A stretch of DNA of 64,000 bases from the IMG/VR virus record IMGVR_UViG_3300032007_000015; one strand, written 5' to 3'. A program made the position numbers and the translations under genes. This document shows positions 5,333 through 64,000 of this stretch, piece by piece. The notes under the pieces are model-generated. The model saw only the letters and a list, made by a program, of their open reading frames with translations. It searched no databases and had not been told where the DNA came from. Within the stretch, counting starts at the first letter, position 1. Every line of letters begins with the position of its first letter. This stretch comes from a virus. Lineage: Duplodnaviria > Caudoviricetes.

Positions 5333-6130
5333 TTATAGCATTACAATTTTATTCGGTTTGCCATTATTATCAATATCTTGTTTCTTTGCTTCTTCTAAAT
5401 ATTTAAAGAATAAATAATGATTTTTATTAGTAATTTTCAAGTAATTAAATGTATTTGAATTAGATTTCATTACATCATCTTTTAACTTTTCTTTCATTTT
5501 ATCAACTGCTTGAATTTTTGGATGATTATTCGGATTATCTCCACCATCTTTAATCTCTATTTCTAAATTAAGTGATGGAATATATACATCAGGAAAATAA
5601 AAATGTTTTTTATTTTCATATATATAATAATACGTATGGGGTGATGGAGTAAATATATCTTCAGGATCCATATCCATTACATTATCAAGAAATTCTAAAA
5701 AACTTTTTTCGTATGAGCCAGTATAGCTAAATTCATGAACTCTATCACTCCATAAGTATGTGCCACTTATTTTTCTTTTAGCTAACATAATTCTTTGTTG
5801 TTCTGGATCATTAAGTAATGTCGTTTGCCCATATTTTCCAACCATTCTTTTCTTAAAAGTTTCAGCATATTTTTTTTTACATTCGGGTGAACCGCAAAAT
5901 CTATTATATTTATTTGTAGATGTATTCCAAGTTGTTGGTTTACCACATATAACACAATTACCGTGTTTTTTACCTGTATTTAAATAAAATATAAATTGTC
6001 GTGCAGTCATATTTGGAATCATCATATCTTTATGTTTGCTTTCCATATGAGAAGCATAATCATCTATATCATAATAAAATTTATCACAATATTTACAATT
6101 AATTCTTCGTTTTCCCATTTTATTTGTCAC
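5333..6130 (-). CDS. Zn-finger + PD-(D/E)xK (TnsA / T4 gp4 head-completion-like) endonuclease
   Basis: CKYC..H...H, CVICG..CGSPEC, SYEKSF, YFPDVYIPSLNLEIEIKDGG; AACA-N6-TA at 6151-6162 (-). Confidence 0.6.
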   Translation of the reverse strand: MTNKMGKRRINCKYCDKFYYDIDDYASHMESKHKDMMIPNMTARQFIFYLNTGKKHGNCVICGKPTTWNTSTNKYNRFCGSPECKKKYAETFKKRMVGKYGQTTLLNDPEQQRIMLAKRKISGTYLWSDRVHEFSYTGSYEKSFLEFLDNVMDMDPEDIFTPSPHTYYYIYENKKHFYFPDVYIPSLNLEIEIKDGGDNPNNHPKIQAVDKMKEKLKDDVMKSNSNTFNYLKITNKNHYLFFKYLEEAKKQDIDNNGKPNKIVML

Positions 6131-9030: not shown

Positions 9031-9282
9031 TTAAGATTTAGTATTTCTTAATGTTTTGATATTTTCATAACTATTTTTAAGTTCTTCCCTCATCCTATCT
9101 TGATCAGCTCGAACTTCTTCATAAGCGTTACGAATTAGCGTAACCTCATTATCAAGGCTCTGAAATATATCACTATATTCATTTGCTGTTTCAGTTACAC
9201 CTTTATTATAACCAGTGTACTTTCCAGCAACAAATGCTGCTATTGTTCCGCCTAATCCTACTGCTAAAAATGTTTTATTCAT
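9031..9282 (-). CDS. Small membrane-anchored coiled-coil accessory protein (start MNKTFL)
   Basis: AAAGGAG RBS before ATG 9282; N-terminal hydrophobic segment then coiled coil. Confidence 0.7.
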   Translation of the reverse strand: MNKTFLAVGLGGTIAAFVAGKYTGYNKGVTETANEYSDIFQSLDNEVTLIRNAYEEVRADQDRMREELKNSYENIKTLRNTKS

Positions 9283-9300
9283 ATGAACTCCTTTCTTATT

Positions 9301-9326
9301 GCTCGGTTTAATGTCATGAGCTGGAC
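9301..9326 (-). ncRNA. Compact H-type pseudoknot motif, copy A
   Basis: GTC-CA-GCTC-AT-GAC-ATTAAAC-C-GAGC; covaries with copies at 15368, 48630, 63893. Confidence 0.65.
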
Positions 9327-9350
9327 TATTTATTATCTTATACAAGAAGA

Positions 9351-9881
9351 TTATATATCAATATTTTCTATATCTTCTTTAATTATTTTTGTTTCAACAT
9401 GATATATACCAGATATATTAGATTTTCCATCTTTGGATATCTGAACTGTTGATACTATTGGTATGTTTACAGTACATGCTACTTCTGCAATCTCTTTAAT
9501 TAAATTTGAAATATCTTTGTCATATATTGTTTCTAGCATACTAAAGACATCAATAATCATCATATCAACTTTTTTATCTTTAACAGCTAAATCTTTAATT
9601 ATTAAATATAAATCATTAGCATCTAATGATTCAAATGATCCATGATTGGCATTTAAAACCATTAAATTTAGATCATCTGAAATTGATAAATTTGATACAG
9701 TATCTTCAATCCTATTACTTACTTCATCAGTCGTATTTTCATATGTGATATATACAATATTCTGATTTGCAGATTTTGGGCTTTGACTAAAATCTGTAAT
9801 TATTTTTGTAAGAGTATTTAATCTGCTATTTTTACCAAATTGAGTCGGATAAATATACAACCCTGCTGCATATGTTTTCAT
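9351..9881 (-). CDS. Truncated/degenerate DnaB-like (SF4 helicase RecA-fold) protein
   Basis: VYITYEN, MMIIDVFSML, IAEVACTVNIPIVSTVQ resemble SF4 motifs H1a/H2/H3; Walker A degenerate; only 176 aa. Confidence 0.5.
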   Translation of the reverse strand: MKTYAAGLYIYPTQFGKNSRLNTLTKIITDFSQSPKSANQNIVYITYENTTDEVSNRIEDTVSNLSISDDLNLMVLNANHGSFESLDANDLYLIIKDLAVKDKKVDMMIIDVFSMLETIYDKDISNLIKEIAEVACTVNIPIVSTVQISKDGKSNISGIYHVETKIIKEDIENIDI

Positions 9882-10033: not shown

Positions 10034-13000
10034 ATGAAAATAGAAATTTTTGATACTAAGCTCTTTATAGATTTAAATAATCTAAAAGAGGTATCATCTC
10101 CCGTACTTTTTCAACGAGGAGATGTACCTGATCCTAAAGGTTTAATATCAAATGATATATTTGGTGTAAGTGTTCGTTCAAGAAAAGAAACATTTGCATA
10201 TATAAAATTAAATGGTCATTTTTTTAATCCTCACGTATATAAAGCTTTTAAACGTTTATGGAGAAATGTTGAAAGAGTTATAAATGGTGCAGAATATTAT
10301 ATAATAAATCAAGATGGTACTCTTATTAAAGATGATAATGGAGAAACTGGAATAAATTTCCTATATAAGAATTGGGAACGTATAAATTGGGAACGTTCAT
10401 TAGATCCTGCAAGTATAAGAAATGAACGTATTGATTTATTAACAAAATCAAAAAAGAATGAAGTTTTTACTGAATATCAAATAGTTATTCCTGCTTTTTA
10501 TCGTGATATTATGCAGAATCAAAAAGGTGGCGGAGAAACTGATAAGTTAAATCCAATGTATTCAAATCTGATTCGTATGGCAAAAATGTTAAAAGAAAGT
10601 GATATGTTTGATTTTAGTATGTATTCAACTGTCTATAATATGCAAAATATTATGGTTGATATATATGATTATTTTAAAGATAAGTTAGATGGTAAAAATG
10701 GATTAATAAGAAAATTCTTATTAGGTAAAAATGTTGATTATTGTACTAGAACTGTTATTACTTCTCCAATATTTCATTCTAATAGACCTAGCGATATGAA
10801 TGTATCTATGAGGTATGCTGGTGTACCTCTACCACAAGCTTTATCATTATGCTATCCATATGTTGTACAATGGCTTAGAACATTTTTTGATAATAATTTT
10901 AATGATTATAAAACAGGTATTCCTGTTTATGATAGACAAACAAAACGTATAGTTGATAGTATACCGATAAAAAATCCAGAATCATATTTTAATGAAAAAT
11001 TTATCAAAAATATGGTTGATAGATATATTGATGATCCTGAATATAGATTTGAACCAATTAAATTACCAACAGAAAGTGATAAGCAATATTATTTAACATT
11101 CACTGGTAAATATTTAACTCCCGGTGTTCCTGCTGAACATTCAAGCATTTCAAATAGATATTTAACAGTAACAGATTTACTTTATATTTGTGCTTCTGAT
11201 ATTGTAAAGGATAAACACGTATTGGTTACACGTTATCCTGTAACTGATTTATATGGTGTATTTATTGCTAGAATACATTTAATTTCGACATTAAAAACTG
11301 ACGTTGTAAAAATTAATGAAACTTTATATAAAGAATATCCTCATGTTGAAATTGGATGTGAGCCTGAAAAAATTGCAACTAGATTTATTGATAGTATGCA
11401 ATTTTCAAATGCTTATCTTGAAGGACTTGTTGGTGATTATGATGGTGACCAAATAACATCTAAGATAATTTGGTCACAAGAAGCAAATAATGAATGTGAA
11501 AAAGTTATGAATAATGTATCGTATTTTATAACTCCTCAAGGTAAAAATATAAGAGTAATTGGTGCTGAAGCAATTCAGACGTTCTATACAATGACAAAAG
11601 ATCCACTACAAAATTCAAAAACATTATTACGAGCAGATGTAGAGAAGTTTTTAAATATGAAACCCGAAGATTTAACATTTGATAAACTTGTTGATATCTT
11701 TGGCGATAAAACAAATGATAAGGTTAATGTTATAAAATCTAAATATTCACCAACTGATAAGATGATTTTAGAATCTAAAGATTATATCAATAAATCAAGA
11801 ATTGAAACAACTTTAGGTAGATTTATATTTACTAAAATACTTATAGAAGGATGTGACTTATCTGATATAATTGGATATGTTAATGAAAACTTAACAGAAG
11901 ATAAATTTAAAGCTATTGAGTCAAAGATATCTACCGCTTGCAGAGAAGGTAAATATTCTGTTGATAATATGTATAAATATATTGATACTAGAGACTGGTT
12001 AGGTTTACAATTACATTCAGTAATTACAACATCATTTACCGAAAAAGTAACAAAAATTCATCCTGAAGTAAAAAAATTAAAAGATGAATTATTTAAAAAA
12101 TATCATACTGAACTTGAAAATGGAGATTATAAAGTTGCAGAAATGATAGAAAACGAATTAGTTGCTAAAACTAAAGAATTACTAAAAGACGATCCTGGAT
12201 TGGATTTATATATTTCAGGTGCAAGAGGTTCCGTCGGTAATAATATGAAAAATATGTTATTAATGAGAGGAGCCGTTCTTAATTCAGTAACCGGAAAATA
12301 TGAAATTGTTAAATCTGCATTAAATGATGGTATGGAAAAAAGTGAAATACCAATGTCGTCTGATACAATTGTTCAAGGTGCATATTCTAAAGCTTGTGGA
12401 ACCGCTGATAGTGGATATTTAGCAAAGCAATTACTTGCTGGTATGCAGACAGAAGTTGTTGATGAAGAGGGTTCTGATTGCGGAACTAATAAAACACTTC
12501 ATATTCATTTAACGAAAAAATTGATATCTCATTTTACTTATCGAAATATCAAAGAAGGAAATAATATTAAATTATTAACACCAGAAAATATAAATGAATA
12601 TGTTGGAAAAGATATTGATGTATATTCTCCAATGTATTGCTGTGGTGATAAATTATGTAGAAAGTGTGTTGGAAAATATCCAAATAAGTTTATCGGTCTT
12701 GATGCTTCTAAGATTGCAACAACACTTACTAACTTAAATATGAAAAAATTCCATGATAACGTAATTAGAACTACATCATTTGATCCAAAACGTTTATTAA
12801 TGATTAATAAAAAAGATATATTTAAATCAGAAAAAAATGATATAATTCTCACAGATAAATATTGTGAGTTTTATATACCTAAAAATTATTTTGATGATTC
12901 AAATAAGTTTTCTGAAGATTATGGTAAAACCATTCATACTATAGGTATTTTTAATGTCGGTATTTTTAATGATGGAAAACTTTCATATATTGATACGTTG

Positions 13001-15367: not shown

Positions 15368-15394
15368 TCTCGGTTTATTGTCATGAGCTGGACA
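15368..15394 (-). ncRNA. Compact pseudoknot motif, copy B
   Basis: TGTC-CA-GCTC-AT-GACA-ATAAAC-C-GAGA. Confidence 0.6.
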
Positions 15395-15524
15395 GAATAA
15401 ATACTAATATATTTTTTATTTTATTCACCAAAATATTATATAATTATTATTACTATTTAATATCATTTTTAGGGTAAAAATATAGTATAGACTTATTATA
15501 GTCTATACTATATTTTCTTAATTA

Positions 15525-25167: not shown

Positions 25168-26397
25168 ATCCGCATTTAGACCTGGTAATATTGACAGTGG
25201 AACAGATAAACAATAATCTGTTGCATCTCGTTTTACATTTCTAATATTCATTAATAACATTGAATAATAATTCAAAGTTGGATTTCGGTTTATTAATATC
25301 TTTGGAGATTCTTTTTTAAGTATATATTGCATTACATTATATACTTGAGGGTCAAATTCAAATGAAGCTCTCCATTTATTATATGCTGATGATAAGTACA
25401 TATCATTTAATTTCATAAGATAATAAATTATCTTATACTTGAAAAGTATTCTAAATGTTTGATATGATAAATCAACCTCATTATCTTTCAAACTTGGGTC
25501 TGGAATAATTACATTTCTTGATGTATTATTACAAGGACCTCCAAGCATCTTATCTCTAATAAATCCTTCTTTTTGTGAAATTAAGTCAAAATTATAATCC
25601 CACATCTTATTTACTCTTTTCTGTATACGATAAAGAATAAATGGTTTTTCAATCGGGTTACACTCTTTAACACTTTCAGATAATTTATATAATGTATTAA
25701 TATGTCTATCTATACTATTAAAGTAAAATGTATCTGATGTGAAAGATTGTGGTCTAAGGATTGTTGAATATATAGGTATATGCGATGTAAAAACTTTATC
25801 CTGTTCATCTAATAATTCAAGAAGTTCTTTTGCCTTATTTTTCTTAACATTAGCAAAATAAGTAATTATGTTTTTAAAGTCCTCCATAAACTTTTCAGTA
25901 CCTATACCCATATAAGGAGATGAAGGAGTTGTTTCTGCTTCATTTGGATCTGCTATACTAGTATTACCATCAATATCAACTTTTTGTCTACAATTGATAA
26001 TATCTGGAAATACCTTCTTTCCTATCAATTTAACTAGTAATTGATAATAATACGGATTAATACATTTAGAATCATTTCCTAATGAAATCCAACCAGTTAC
26101 TTTTACATTATTACCACGATATTCAACTGGTTCATGACATATAGGGCACACCTCACCTTCAAAAAGTTTTCCTTTAAATTCACCACATTTACATCTATAT
26201 CTTTCTATAAATGCTTGGTCATCTTCATATGATGTACCATAAAGTGGTGACTGGGCTCCATACATTGATTTTACTTTCGAGCCATCAAGTGAAACAATCG
26301 CTGGTTCTGTAATAATAAATCCATCACCAGACAGAATGTCATTATAAAAATCAATGTCCCAATTTCTTCTTACTACGTGAACTATTTCTTTTCCCAT
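25168..26397 (-). CDS. rpoC: Exon 1 of RNAP beta' N-terminal subunit (probably non-virion RNAP); spliced product 477 aa
   Basis: YRCKCG..CPIC zinc site, PIYSTILRP, KEGFIRDKMLGG, SRNVIIPDP, INRNPTL, LPGLNAD. Confidence 0.92.
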
Positions 26398-48522: not shown

Positions 48523-48629
48523 AATTTTTCCTTTCTTATACAATATGATTTTTAAATAATTTAAACTTTAATGAAATGTACCAAATACTATAAAAAATAA
48601 AAAAAAAATAAATTTCAGGGATAACCCTA

Positions 48630-48656
48630 GAGCAGTTTATAGACTTGCTCAGGTCT
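48630..48656 (-). ncRNA. Compact pseudoknot motif, copy C (followed by hairpin and T-run)
   Basis: AGAC-CT-GAGC-AA-GTCT-ATAAAC-T-GCTC then AGGGttatCCCT and T-rich tail. Confidence 0.7.
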
Positions 48657-48662
48657 TGAAGA

Positions 48663-49004
48663 CTACTGTGGGATGTAGTCTTCTTTAATAATGTCAATTT
48701 TAAGTAGACGTTCCCACTTTACAAAGTGGAAATCTACTTTATCTTCACCTCCTTCTGGCTGTGGTATTAATACACGGTCATTTACAGCCATAATGACCGG
48801 TTTATTTCCTGCAATCTTCAGGAACTGAGCCTGAAGATTTATTGGTGCGACTATCGCAATGATGTCGCACTCATTAATTTCGTCTGCGATTTCATATGCT
48901 GATGAGATTGTCTTGTTGATGTTGACAATTTCAACGTTATTGCCGAGAGCAGCAAGCTGCTCTTCAGTCATCTCGTGTCTTGAAAACCATAATATTTTTT
49001 TCAT
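48663..49004 (-). CDS. Small Rossmann-like protein resembling Csx16/Csx20 ring-nuclease family
   Basis: KILWFSRHEMTEEQL, DIIAIVAPINLQAQFL; AAAGGAG RBS; higher GC cassette. Confidence 0.45.
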   Translation of the reverse strand: MKKILWFSRHEMTEEQLAALGNNVEIVNINKTISSAYEIADEINECDIIAIVAPINLQAQFLKIAGNKPVIMAVNDRVLIPQPEGGEDKVDFHFVKWERLLKIDIIKEDYIPQ

Positions 49005-49075
49005 GTTAACTCCTTTCCCAGTTAGACACATGAATTCTAACTGACGTGGTTTTATTTAGGATTACCACGGAACCT
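49000..49075 (-). promoter_or_regulatory. Tandem-pseudoknot 5' leader RNA, copy 3
   Basis: AGG TTC CGTGGT AAT CCT AAATAAA ACCACG T CAGTTAGA ATTCATGTG TCTAACTG GGAAAGGAGTTAAC ATGAA. Confidence 0.75.
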
Positions 49076-63808: not shown

Positions 63809-63892
63809 TATTAATTCTCCTTTAAGTTAATTTTAAAAAAATGTGAAAATGAATATAAAAAAGAAAAAAATATTTTTAGGGGTTTACCCTGT

Positions 63893-63920
63893 GAGCAGTT
63901 TATAGACGTTGCTCAGGTCT
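63893..63920 (-). ncRNA. Compact pseudoknot motif, copy D (followed by hairpin)
   Basis: AGAC-CT-GAGC-AAC-GTCT-ATAAAC-T-GCTC then AGGGtaaacCCCT. Confidence 0.7.
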
Positions 63921-64000
63921 GCAATTTTTTAAGTAGCTGTCGACTACTTTTTGATTGCCTTTGAGATGGTCAGCAAGGCACTGCCCACTGACCATGCCAC

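Follow-up and report, generated by a model that had tools for sequence, protein, structure and literature searches.

A compact RNA pseudoknot family of DNA phages that resembles the coremin motif and may protect mRNA ends

The ends of bacterial and phage mRNAs can be stabilised by several kinds of element, among them Bacillus 5' stabilisers that act against RNase J1, REP and terminator hairpins, and the RNase III sites of phage T7. Blockage of RNase J1 at a 5' region has been described (PMC5737220). Exoribonuclease-resistant RNAs have so far been a feature of eukaryotic RNA viruses, and our literature search returned no exoribonuclease-resistant RNA in a DNA phage or bacterium and no description of a phage pseudoknot like the one presented here. 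One such viral RNA is coremin (xrRNA_C), which is carried by RNA3 of BNYVV, by cucumoviruses and by many other eukaryotic RNA viruses (PMC6546385, PMC10520033). Coremin begins with a hairpin of three to four base pairs closed by a C-G pair, whose loop has C in the first and a non-C base in the last position; the element still works with loops as long as eight bases (PMC6546385, PMC10520033, PMC10321173). A spacer, GUUAAACUAC, follows, in which AAA and C are unchangeable, and after it a second hairpin, hp2 (PMC6546385, PMC10520033, PMC10321173). Written as (G)UUAAACUAC, the spacer has A15–A17, C18, U19 and A20 as its essential positions (PMC6546385, PMC10520033). When Xrn1 reaches the base of the first hairpin it stalls, and hp2 is needed for this (PMC6546385, PMC10520033, PMC10321173). 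Coremin also acts on ribosomes: it halts those that are scanning and promotes frameshifting into the -1 frame, including in an E. coli screen (PMC10520033, PMC10321173).

A Watson-Crick form of coremin, xrRNA_WCC, is represented by laboratory-selected variants and by Sanxia picorna-like virus 5. It stimulates frameshifting without hp2, whereas its Xrn1 resistance still needs the second hairpin (PMC10321173). Frameshift pseudoknots of similar size, including that of BWYV, do not stall Xrn1, so that the fold alone is no guarantee of resistance (PMC10321173).

We studied a pseudoknot motif in a stretch of phage DNA of 64,000 nucleotides (the window), which corresponds to positions 94098–158097 of a virus record of 158,316 bp with about 25% G+C. 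CheckV puts the completeness of the record at about 66%, and its genes include those for a divergent family B DNA polymerase, an Rpb1-like RNA polymerase subunit, a chaperonin, thymidylate synthase and an endolysin. A megablast comparison of 20 kb of the window with cultured phages gave no match, and the phage is therefore without a close cultured relative. Positions given below are those of the window unless the record is named.

The motif is an H-type pseudoknot of 27–28 nucleotides. Stem 1 consists of three to four base pairs with C-G as the closing pair, and a conserved C makes up loop 1. Stem 2, of four to six base pairs, joins the hairpin loop to the bases that directly follow a conserved (W)UAAAC linker, and this linker probably lies in the minor groove of stem 1. 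AAAC never varies within the linker; it is followed by U or C, depending on the subtype, and then by a G that belongs to stem 2. The hairpin loop is eight nucleotides long and base-paired, with an invariant C as its first base and mostly A or U as its last. Two subtypes can be distinguished. In T1, stem 2 is GCUC/GAGC, the second loop base is A, AAAC is followed by C, and the motif is found in 5' leaders, directly ahead of a Shine-Dalgarno (SD) sequence. In T2, stem 2 is UGAGCA/UGCUCA, the second loop base and the base after AAAC are both U, and the motif lies at least 5 nt after stop codons, as well as before T-runs or tRNAs.

The earlier note, written from the letters alone, had reported four minus-strand copies in the window (A to D), and all four were found exactly at the positions it gave. 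Copy A, of the T1 type (9301–9326, or 9301–9327 with the fourth position of stem 1; 30.5 bits, E = 2.4e-5 with a covariance model built from the motif family), reads (A)GUC-CA-GCUC-AU-GAC(A)-UUAAACC-GAGC, or, without the bracketed bases, GUC-CA-GCUC-AU-GAC-AUUAAACC-GAGC; position 9327 forms an A·A mismatch at the fourth position of stem 1. Copy B (15368–15394), with the sequence UGUC-CA-GCUC-AU-GACA-AUAAACC-GAGA, is a degenerate T1 copy and the weakest match to the model (26.2 bits, E = 2.7e-4). The remaining two are of the T2 type: copy C (48630–48656; 38.6 bits, E = 2.5e-7), AGAC-C-UGAGCA-A-GUCU-AUAAAC-UGCUC, and copy D (63893–63920, or 63892–63920 with a final A; 34.8 bits, E = 2.2e-6), AGAC-C-UGAGCA-AC-GUCU-AUAAAC-UGCUCA, which differs from C by AC before GUCU. 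Between A/B and C/D, stem 1 changes from GTC/GAC to GAC/GTC and stem 2 from GCTC/GAGC to GAGC/GCTC, just as had been described. One point needs correcting: in copy B only three pairs of stem 2 can form (GCTC against GAGA).

The genome-wide covariance search that the note had called for yields nine copies in the whole record at E ≤ 2.7e-4, and the next best match has E = 1.3. Five of the nine are outside the window. The T1 copies number five (A, B and those at record positions 11424, 5562 and 25750) and the T2 copies four (C, D, copy F at record position 11545 and copy G at 11025). Every copy is intergenic and co-oriented with its genes: eight share the minus strand with the genes around them, and the ninth is on the plus strand ahead of a plus-strand gene. 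A structural scan of the record gave 10 matches, compared with a mean of 0.17 over 30 dinucleotide shuffles. Together with the nine model matches, this excess over shuffles indicates that the motif is real and not a product of chance.

The fold is carried by covariation. When 98 distinct copies are aligned, pairing is seen in 93% of cells, a figure that is biased upwards since the rows had been selected for pairing, and 190 cells are changed on both sides where 56 would be expected. The pairing of this alignment was matched by none of 500 shuffles, and no slid register came near it. An unbiased test is provided by 45 distinct T2 copies that were defined by search patterns, with the three variable positions of stem 1 lying outside the patterns. 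Thirty of these strings form all three unconstrained stem 1 pairs (about 5% expected) and another 13 form two, with 24 different stem 1 sequence types represented among the 45. The C-G closing pair is found in 96 of the 98 aligned copies and in 4/4 copies of the window, and the other three pairs of stem 1 covary. Each of the six pairs of stem 2 is changed on both strands in some copies, and 99–100% of all copies form the four core pairs; compensatory variants include UGGGUA/UACCCA, UGGACA/UGUCUA, GGGCA/UGCCC, GGUGG/CCACC and GUUC/GAAC. Nested folding of the motif yields only non-significant energies (-2.3 to -5.3 kcal/mol; z -0.7 to -1.9), and the fold is thus supported by covariation rather than by thermodynamics.

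A conserved 27-mer that is repeated in intergenic DNA, and that in its T1 form is part of a repeated promoter cassette, could also be a site acting at the level of DNA, such as a phage promoter, a recombination site or a protein-binding site. We consider this highly unlikely. The compensatory changes preserve complementarity rather than sequence, there are many G-U and U-G pairs (12 at columns 6–22 and 11 at columns 12–34), the orientation always matches the gene strand, and the motif is present in the genomes of RNA viruses. Covariation in both stems, G-U pairs included, argues for an RNA structure and not a DNA site. That the repeats represent an RNA pseudoknot fold under selection, as the earlier note had suggested, is strongly supported by this covariation in hundreds of copies.

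The motif extends well beyond this phage, and exact-pattern scans located it in more than 140 other viral contigs. The T2 pattern is present in at least 120 IMG/VR contigs among the matches listed; for the T1 pattern the count is 26 contigs, rising to 81 with a broader T1 pattern that also picks up some chance matches. Among cultured phages, carriers are the group of Arthrobacter phage Amigo, temperate phages of Clostridium and Lactobacillus, the crAss-like phage cr7_1 and Synechococcus phage S-CRM01. Overall, carriers span phages of Firmicutes, Actinobacteria, Cyanobacteria and Saccharibacteria, crAss-like phages that infect Bacteroidota, and others. A pattern scan of contigs from bacterial genomes gave 108 matches, many of them chance occurrences inside genes without stem 1 pairing. 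We conclude that the motif is a real and strongly supported RNA pseudoknot family in DNA phages. The T1-pattern matches include, in addition, short contigs of eukaryote-type RNA viruses. In a dicistro-like genome the motif lies 12 nt into the 3' UTR, and in tombus-like genomes it lies between the replicase and coat ORFs; all RNA-virus copies retrieved are T1 or T1-like. The presence of such viruses among the matches is what led to the comparison with the plant-virus literature.

This distribution bears on two of the functions that had been proposed for the motif. Type III antitoxins such as ToxI and CptI are small H-type pseudoknots, and a decoy mimicking them might counter the abortive-infection toxins of the host. 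That general likeness is all that speaks for the idea, which we regard as the most improbable of those considered here. The copies are single and dispersed over 158 kb, and do not form tandem arrays of 34–36 nt units; a sequence conserved across RNA viruses and the phages of many phyla does not suit a toxin-specific decoy. A search of the record for ToxN (PF13958) gave no match, which is weak evidence because the control search was equally silent. Rfam 15 likewise gave no antitoxin match: nothing reached the gathering threshold over the window, and neither ToxI, CptI and TenpI, which had been suggested as candidates, nor any other family appeared over two motif regions even at E ≤ 10. A protein-binding tag, another of the suggestions, is conceivable but hard to reconcile with a motif found across phages of many phyla and eukaryotic RNA viruses. 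None of the ribozyme cores hammerhead, twister, pistol and HDV-like appears to fit the motif, and Rfam reports none either.

In this phage, the two subtypes occupy different positions, and the rule that connects subtype and context is followed by 9/9 copies. All five T1 copies belong to one conserved promoter-leader cassette; A and B do lie in 5' leaders, as first noted. The cassette consists of an extended -10-like ATATAAT, the leader ATTTTTNTGAATAAAATAAAAA, the pseudoknot and (A)UAAGAAAGGA, with ATG 15–22 nt past the knot. Ahead of copy A, a promoter-like element, TTGATA-18-GATAAT (9332–9361, minus strand), matches at 10/12 positions and is part of the cassette. We infer a promoter function for this element; scans for sigma-70 promoters in this 25% GC DNA gave no more matches than shuffles. 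Four of the five T1 copies directly precede an SD sequence, with identical spacing between the pseudoknot and GAAAGGA. Behind copy A, the SD sequence AAAGGAG starts 7 nt past the pseudoknot and is followed by the ATG (9282–9280) of a small ORF (SD and start, 9280–9294, minus strand). The exception is copy B, where the adjoining SD has become GAAAAAA by mutation and one has to go about 85 nt downstream to reach the next start; copy B is a decayed version of the cassette.

The four T2 copies of this phage are all at gene ends. Copy C begins 6 nt after the TAG (48663–48665) of an ORF at 48663–49031 and precedes the thymidylate synthase gene. Right after it follows a small hairpin, UAGGG-UUAU-CCCUG (48616–48629, minus strand), and then AAAUUUA and T10; this region is positive in a scan for terminator-like structures. 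Past copy D, after 2 nt, there is a hairpin AGGG-UAAAC-CCCU (63878–63890, minus strand) with a T-run 7 nt later, which the same scan of the window does not score as a terminator. Copies C, D and F share this arrangement: a hairpin of four to five base pairs (of the type AGGG-UUAU-CCCU) after 0–2 nt, then 7–8 A/U bases and then a T-run. C and D had been placed just before terminator hairpins; a hairpin does follow each of them, but the T-run lies 7–8 nt beyond it and only the hairpin after C is terminator-like. That hairpin may be either a weak terminator or the equivalent of hp2 of coremin. Copy G leads straight into the U-rich tract UAUUUUAUUUCUUUUUUU without another hairpin. Directly upstream of copy D, a two-stem structure (63921–63958, minus strand) has an inner hairpin with the loop (U)CGACA(G). 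The loop is shared with copy F, outside the window, and the stem covaries between them (GUAG/CUAC and UUGG/CCAA); the region 63865–63960 around copy D has a fold z of -3.0.

The same division is apparent in the family as a whole. On DNA-phage contigs (T1, n = 46; T2, n = 231), an SD sequence and start codon follow within 35 nt in 46% of T1 copies versus 25% of T2 copies (Fisher p 0.007), and a stop codon lies 4–15 nt upstream of 13% versus 50% (Fisher p 3e-6); these p values are descriptive only, as the copies are phylogenetically non-independent and the contigs related. A T-run of at least five T within 14 nt downstream is present in 0/46 T1 copies (0%) and in 32/231 T2 copies (14%). In a group of phage contigs of 60–290 kb the two subtypes occur in tandem, six times in the order T2 to T1 and never in the reverse. 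The layout is a stop codon, T2, an AU-rich spacer of 10–14 nt, T1, GGAGG and ATG. Because the contexts of T1 and T2 differ, the exchange of stem 2 is more than covariation within a family: the swapped stem marks a leader form (T1) and a gene-end form (T2).

Some of these contexts recall elements that end transcription. A pseudoknot whose stem 2 closes shortly ahead of a U-run could replace the hairpin of an intrinsic terminator, with the closing of transcription units, and not resistance to nucleases, as its main task. The T2 copies with a T-run, the passage of copy G into its U-rich tract, the terminator-like score of copy C with its hairpin, and the TGnTATAAT-like promoters that follow some copies are all compatible with such a 3'-end element. 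However, most copies have no T-run, and T1 copies never have one and lie inside leaders before an SD sequence. After many T2 copies, the next gene or tRNA begins within 10–30 nt on the same transcript. The distance of 7–8 nt between hairpin and T-run in C, D and F is non-canonical, and the motif also occurs in eukaryotic RNA viruses. We therefore judge a role in transcription termination unlikely. Blocking of Rho was set aside as a general role, as the motif is carried by cyanophages; to our knowledge, cyanobacteria do not have Rho.

A long ORF ends within 60 nt upstream of 164 of the 248 non-identical copies, and the distance between its stop codon and the motif is sharply bounded. Only two copies are at 4 nt, and at 5 to 10 nt there are 24, 27, 12, 16, 11 and 9, which gives a floor of 5 nt and a mode of 5–6 nt. 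From the spacers of frameshift signals, a ribosome with a stop codon in its A site needs 5–6 nt to leave a downstream structure unmelted. The observed spacing equals this need, which implies that the knot stays folded while the upstream gene is being translated.

The spacing also raises the question of whether the motif is directed at ribosomes. It could block scanning after termination and so uncouple neighbouring cistrons, and T1 could be a translational operator or enhancer beside the SD sequence, perhaps bound by a protein. A distance of 5–6 nt is that of frameshift stimulators, T1 stands at a fixed short distance from GAAAGGA or GGAGG, and coremin itself acts on ribosomes in both of the ways described above (PMC10520033, PMC10321173). 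We doubt this explanation, since the stop codons are not preceded by slippery sequences, the reading frame through the motif varies, some copies precede tRNAs, T-runs or promoters with no downstream cistron, and no common neighbouring protein gene was seen. As for a -1 frameshift stimulator in particular, a stop codon occupies the 5–9 nt upstream, no slippery pattern was found and the copies are intergenic. The luteoviral -1 frameshift pseudoknots of the BWYV P1-P2 type are about 28 nt long; their loop 1 is short and includes a C, and an A-rich loop crosses stem 1. In contrast to these, the phage motif is outside overlapping ORFs and has no slippery heptamer upstream.

The genes that flank the motif, among them thymidylate synthase, small ORFs and tRNAs, are unrelated to each other. 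This is of consequence for a small-ligand riboswitch of the preQ1-I kind. PreQ1-I riboswitches are H-type pseudoknots that measure about 30 nt, end in an A-rich 3' tail and in some cases precede an SD sequence or a terminator. They are thus alike in topology and size to the motif, which in some copies is followed by an SD sequence or by a hairpin and T-run. In contrast, the motif shows no Rfam match at E ≤ 10, to the preQ1-I model (RF00522) or any other, and has neither the ligand-pocket C in loop 2 nor an association with queuosine genes. It lies mostly behind genes; the downstream genes are unrelated and many copies have none, the 3' arm has no alternative pairing to an expression platform, and the motif is found in 3' UTRs of eukaryotic RNA viruses. 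A riboswitch is accordingly very improbable.

At nine loci a tRNA gene starts 3–13 nt downstream of the motif, and a tRNA gene is never found just upstream of it. In Arthrobacter phage Amigo the order is the stop codon of the SSB gene, 8 nt, the motif, 2 nt and tRNA-Gly. Cleavage by RNase P at this tRNA would leave an SSB message whose very 3' terminus is the motif.

The reading that we favour, with a probability of about one half, is that the motif is a mechanical roadblock which protects the 3' ends (T2) and the 5' ends (T1) of mRNAs; it draws on the precedent of coremin and on the genomic context. The roadblock would be independent of proteins and would mark and protect RNA ends in two forms. 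T2 would be placed as close behind the stop codon as the terminating ribosome permits and would become the protected 3' end of the upstream message. Such an end would be made when transcription stops at a U-run, when RNase P processes a tRNA that follows, or when an endonuclease cuts the AU-rich spacer. T1, in the 5' leader and a few nucleotides before the ribosome-binding site, would block 5'-to-3' decay into the coding region. Decay that starts on the A-rich leader of 25–35 nt would halt at the knot and leave the SD sequence intact, and the activity stopped in this way could be the exonuclease RNase J or the 5'-end-dependent scanning of RNase E.

An exonuclease roadblock was one of three functions suggested in the earlier note, and it is the best fit of the three in view of the features shared with coremin; RNase J, one of the targets named there, does not hold up as a general one. 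We searched for RNase J (TIGR00649) in genomes with bona fide copies of the motif, limiting the test to such loci. The enzyme is present in a Lacticaseibacillus isolate and in a Saccharibacteria genome, and gave no match in a complete chromosome of Ignavibacteriota with three bona fide copies and in three MAGs with copies. As RNase J is missing from some genomes with bona fide copies, a roadblock that acts only on this enzyme cannot be general. In such hosts the knot would have to act on another machine, be it the ribosome, a 3' exonuclease or 5'-end-dependent RNase E.

An element of 27 nt that is near-identical across many phyla and in RNA viruses must either work by itself or have a universal target. 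More tentatively, we propose that a self-sufficient 27-nt pseudoknot, as a 3' cap in its T2 form and a 5' cap in its T1 form, divides polycistronic phage transcripts into messages that are each stable in their own right. This RNA, which eukaryotic RNA viruses also have, would be the first translocase- or exonuclease-resistant class known from DNA phages and from prokaryotes. It would act against unrelated nucleases (RNase J, RNase E during scanning, PNPase and Xrn1) purely by its topology. If the motif is a roadblock, it would explain the segmental stability of phage mRNAs, provide a compact and portable means of stabilising synthetic mRNAs in bacteria and supply many natural variants for the unsolved structure of coremin. 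The split between T1 and T2 makes a testable prediction, namely that two flavours of one fold protect different ends.

The role proposed here, structured punctuation between cistrons that sets the segmental stability of mRNAs, is the same as that of the known bacterial and phage mRNA end-stabilisers. Those elements are simple hairpins, bound ribosomes or processed stems without a conserved sequence, however, whereas the motif is one conserved pseudoknot that phages of different phyla have in common with RNA viruses.

The resemblance to coremin is closer. Both RNAs have a hairpin of three to four base pairs with C-G closure, a loop that begins with C and whose last base is usually not C, and AAAC in the linker ((G)UUAAACU in coremin, (W)UAAAC in the phage motif, where AAAC is invariant). 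Both are placed at the start of 3' UTRs or between genes and occur in tandem copies, and T1 is found in dicistro-like and tombus-like viruses. The two differ in that the YGAD or YGNNAD loop signature of coremin is absent from the phage motif, whose second loop base is U or A and not G and whose loop forms four to six Watson-Crick pairs with the bases after AAAC(Y); in that spacer position A20 is G; in that hp2, required for Xrn1 resistance in coremin, is usually absent, a GC-containing second hairpin within 3 nt being found in only about 20 of 248 copies (it is present after C and D and absent after A and B); and in that the phage motif is carried by DNA phages, whose bacterial hosts have no Xrn1. 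With xrRNA_WCC the motif shares an antiparallel pseudoknot between loop and linker, an unchangeable one-base loop 1 and adenines of an A-rich loop that are proposed to lie in the groove of stem 1 (PMC10321173). In xrRNA_WCC, however, stem 2 has three base pairs on linker positions 18–20, so that the C of AAAC is paired, and loop 1 is G, whereas in the phage motif the four to six pairs of stem 2 follow AAAC(Y) and loop 1 is C or CA. On the strength of sequence and of published mutagenesis, coremin with its Watson-Crick form is the closest known RNA, and the motif can be regarded as a Watson-Crick-paired relative of it. With the shared features and the differences taken together, the motif appears to be a new variant of the coremin kind that belongs to neither of the described classes.

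All five T1 copies of the phage record, the pseudoknots with a GCUC/GAGC second stem that lie in 5' leaders, share an upstream cassette of approximately 60 nucleotides with the sequence ATATAAT-ATTTTTNTGAATAAAATAAAAA. In the window the cassette is found on the minus strand at 9332-9361 and 15400-15450, and elsewhere in the record it occupies genome positions 11430-11480, 5570-5620, and 25690-25745. The cassette is probably a repeated phage promoter and leader that drives small ORFs. Several of the small ORFs behind it begin with MNK, and these look membrane-associated. A perfect, AT-rich inverted repeat of 17 base pairs (window 15477-15516, AAAATATAGTATAGACT...AGTCTATACTATATTTT), which lies between the endolysin gene and T1 copy B, has the appearance of a bidirectional terminator.

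The T2 copies, which carry a UGAGCA/UGCUCA second stem, are located at gene ends. Directly upstream of copies D and F is a hairpin (window 63931-63949, minus strand, and genome 11560-11580 or L001:1561-1581, respectively) whose UCGACAG loop is conserved in both and whose stem covaries (GUAG/CUAC versus UUGG/CCAA). Some T2 copies may thus be accompanied by another small RNA structure, of which this hairpin would be an example. Copy C is preceded by an ORF of 122 amino acids (window 48663-49031, minus strand) whose stop codon lies 6 nucleotides before the pseudoknot, and comparison of this ORF with PHROG gave no match.

The stretch between copies G and E, both outside the window (L001:1117-1320, genome about 11116-11319), contains two identical copies of a 55-nucleotide hairpin-forming repeat spaced by 84 nucleotides (L001:1120-1174 and 1204-1258), as well as a perfect palindrome of 15 base pairs, AGAAAGAAGGAAACA...UGUUUCCUUCUUUCU (L001:1285-1319). 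Rfam matches to these elements were judged spurious.

An exact scan of bacterial genome contigs with a 19-base pattern yielded the matches L149-L228. Approximately half of these lack stem 1 pairing and lie inside coding sequence, as in Acinetobacter, Psychrobacter, and Flavobacterium. A host range drawn from pattern matches alone would be wrong. Bona fide copies, which also form stem 1, occur in dense arrays within a few kilobases and with differing stem 1 sequences: seven in a 7-kb contig of a Selenomonadaceae MAG (L162) and four in a Saccharibacteria contig (L155). Both arrays would lend themselves to end-mapping.

In four tombus-like RNA-virus contigs from IMG/VR, the intergenic region between replicase and coat genes matches the Rfam model of the GIR1 lariat-capping (branching) ribozyme (L131:831-1151, L136:387-622, L139:2203-2438, and L144:1030-1295, minus strand). 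E-values range from 1e-11 to 6e-7 at 43-61 bits, and none reaches the gathering score of 100 bits. A literature search found no report of lariat-capping ribozymes in RNA viruses. The GIR1 core blocks AUGGGGU, CCAAAACGG, UUCCGUACUAAG, GAGAGACUACACGG, and AUCCCAUA are retained, and the P2 pairing encloses a T1 pseudoknot, which occupies the expected place of the ribozyme's P2.1 arm. If the match is true, the subgenomic RNA for the coat protein would carry a lariat cap, which would be a remarkable feature.
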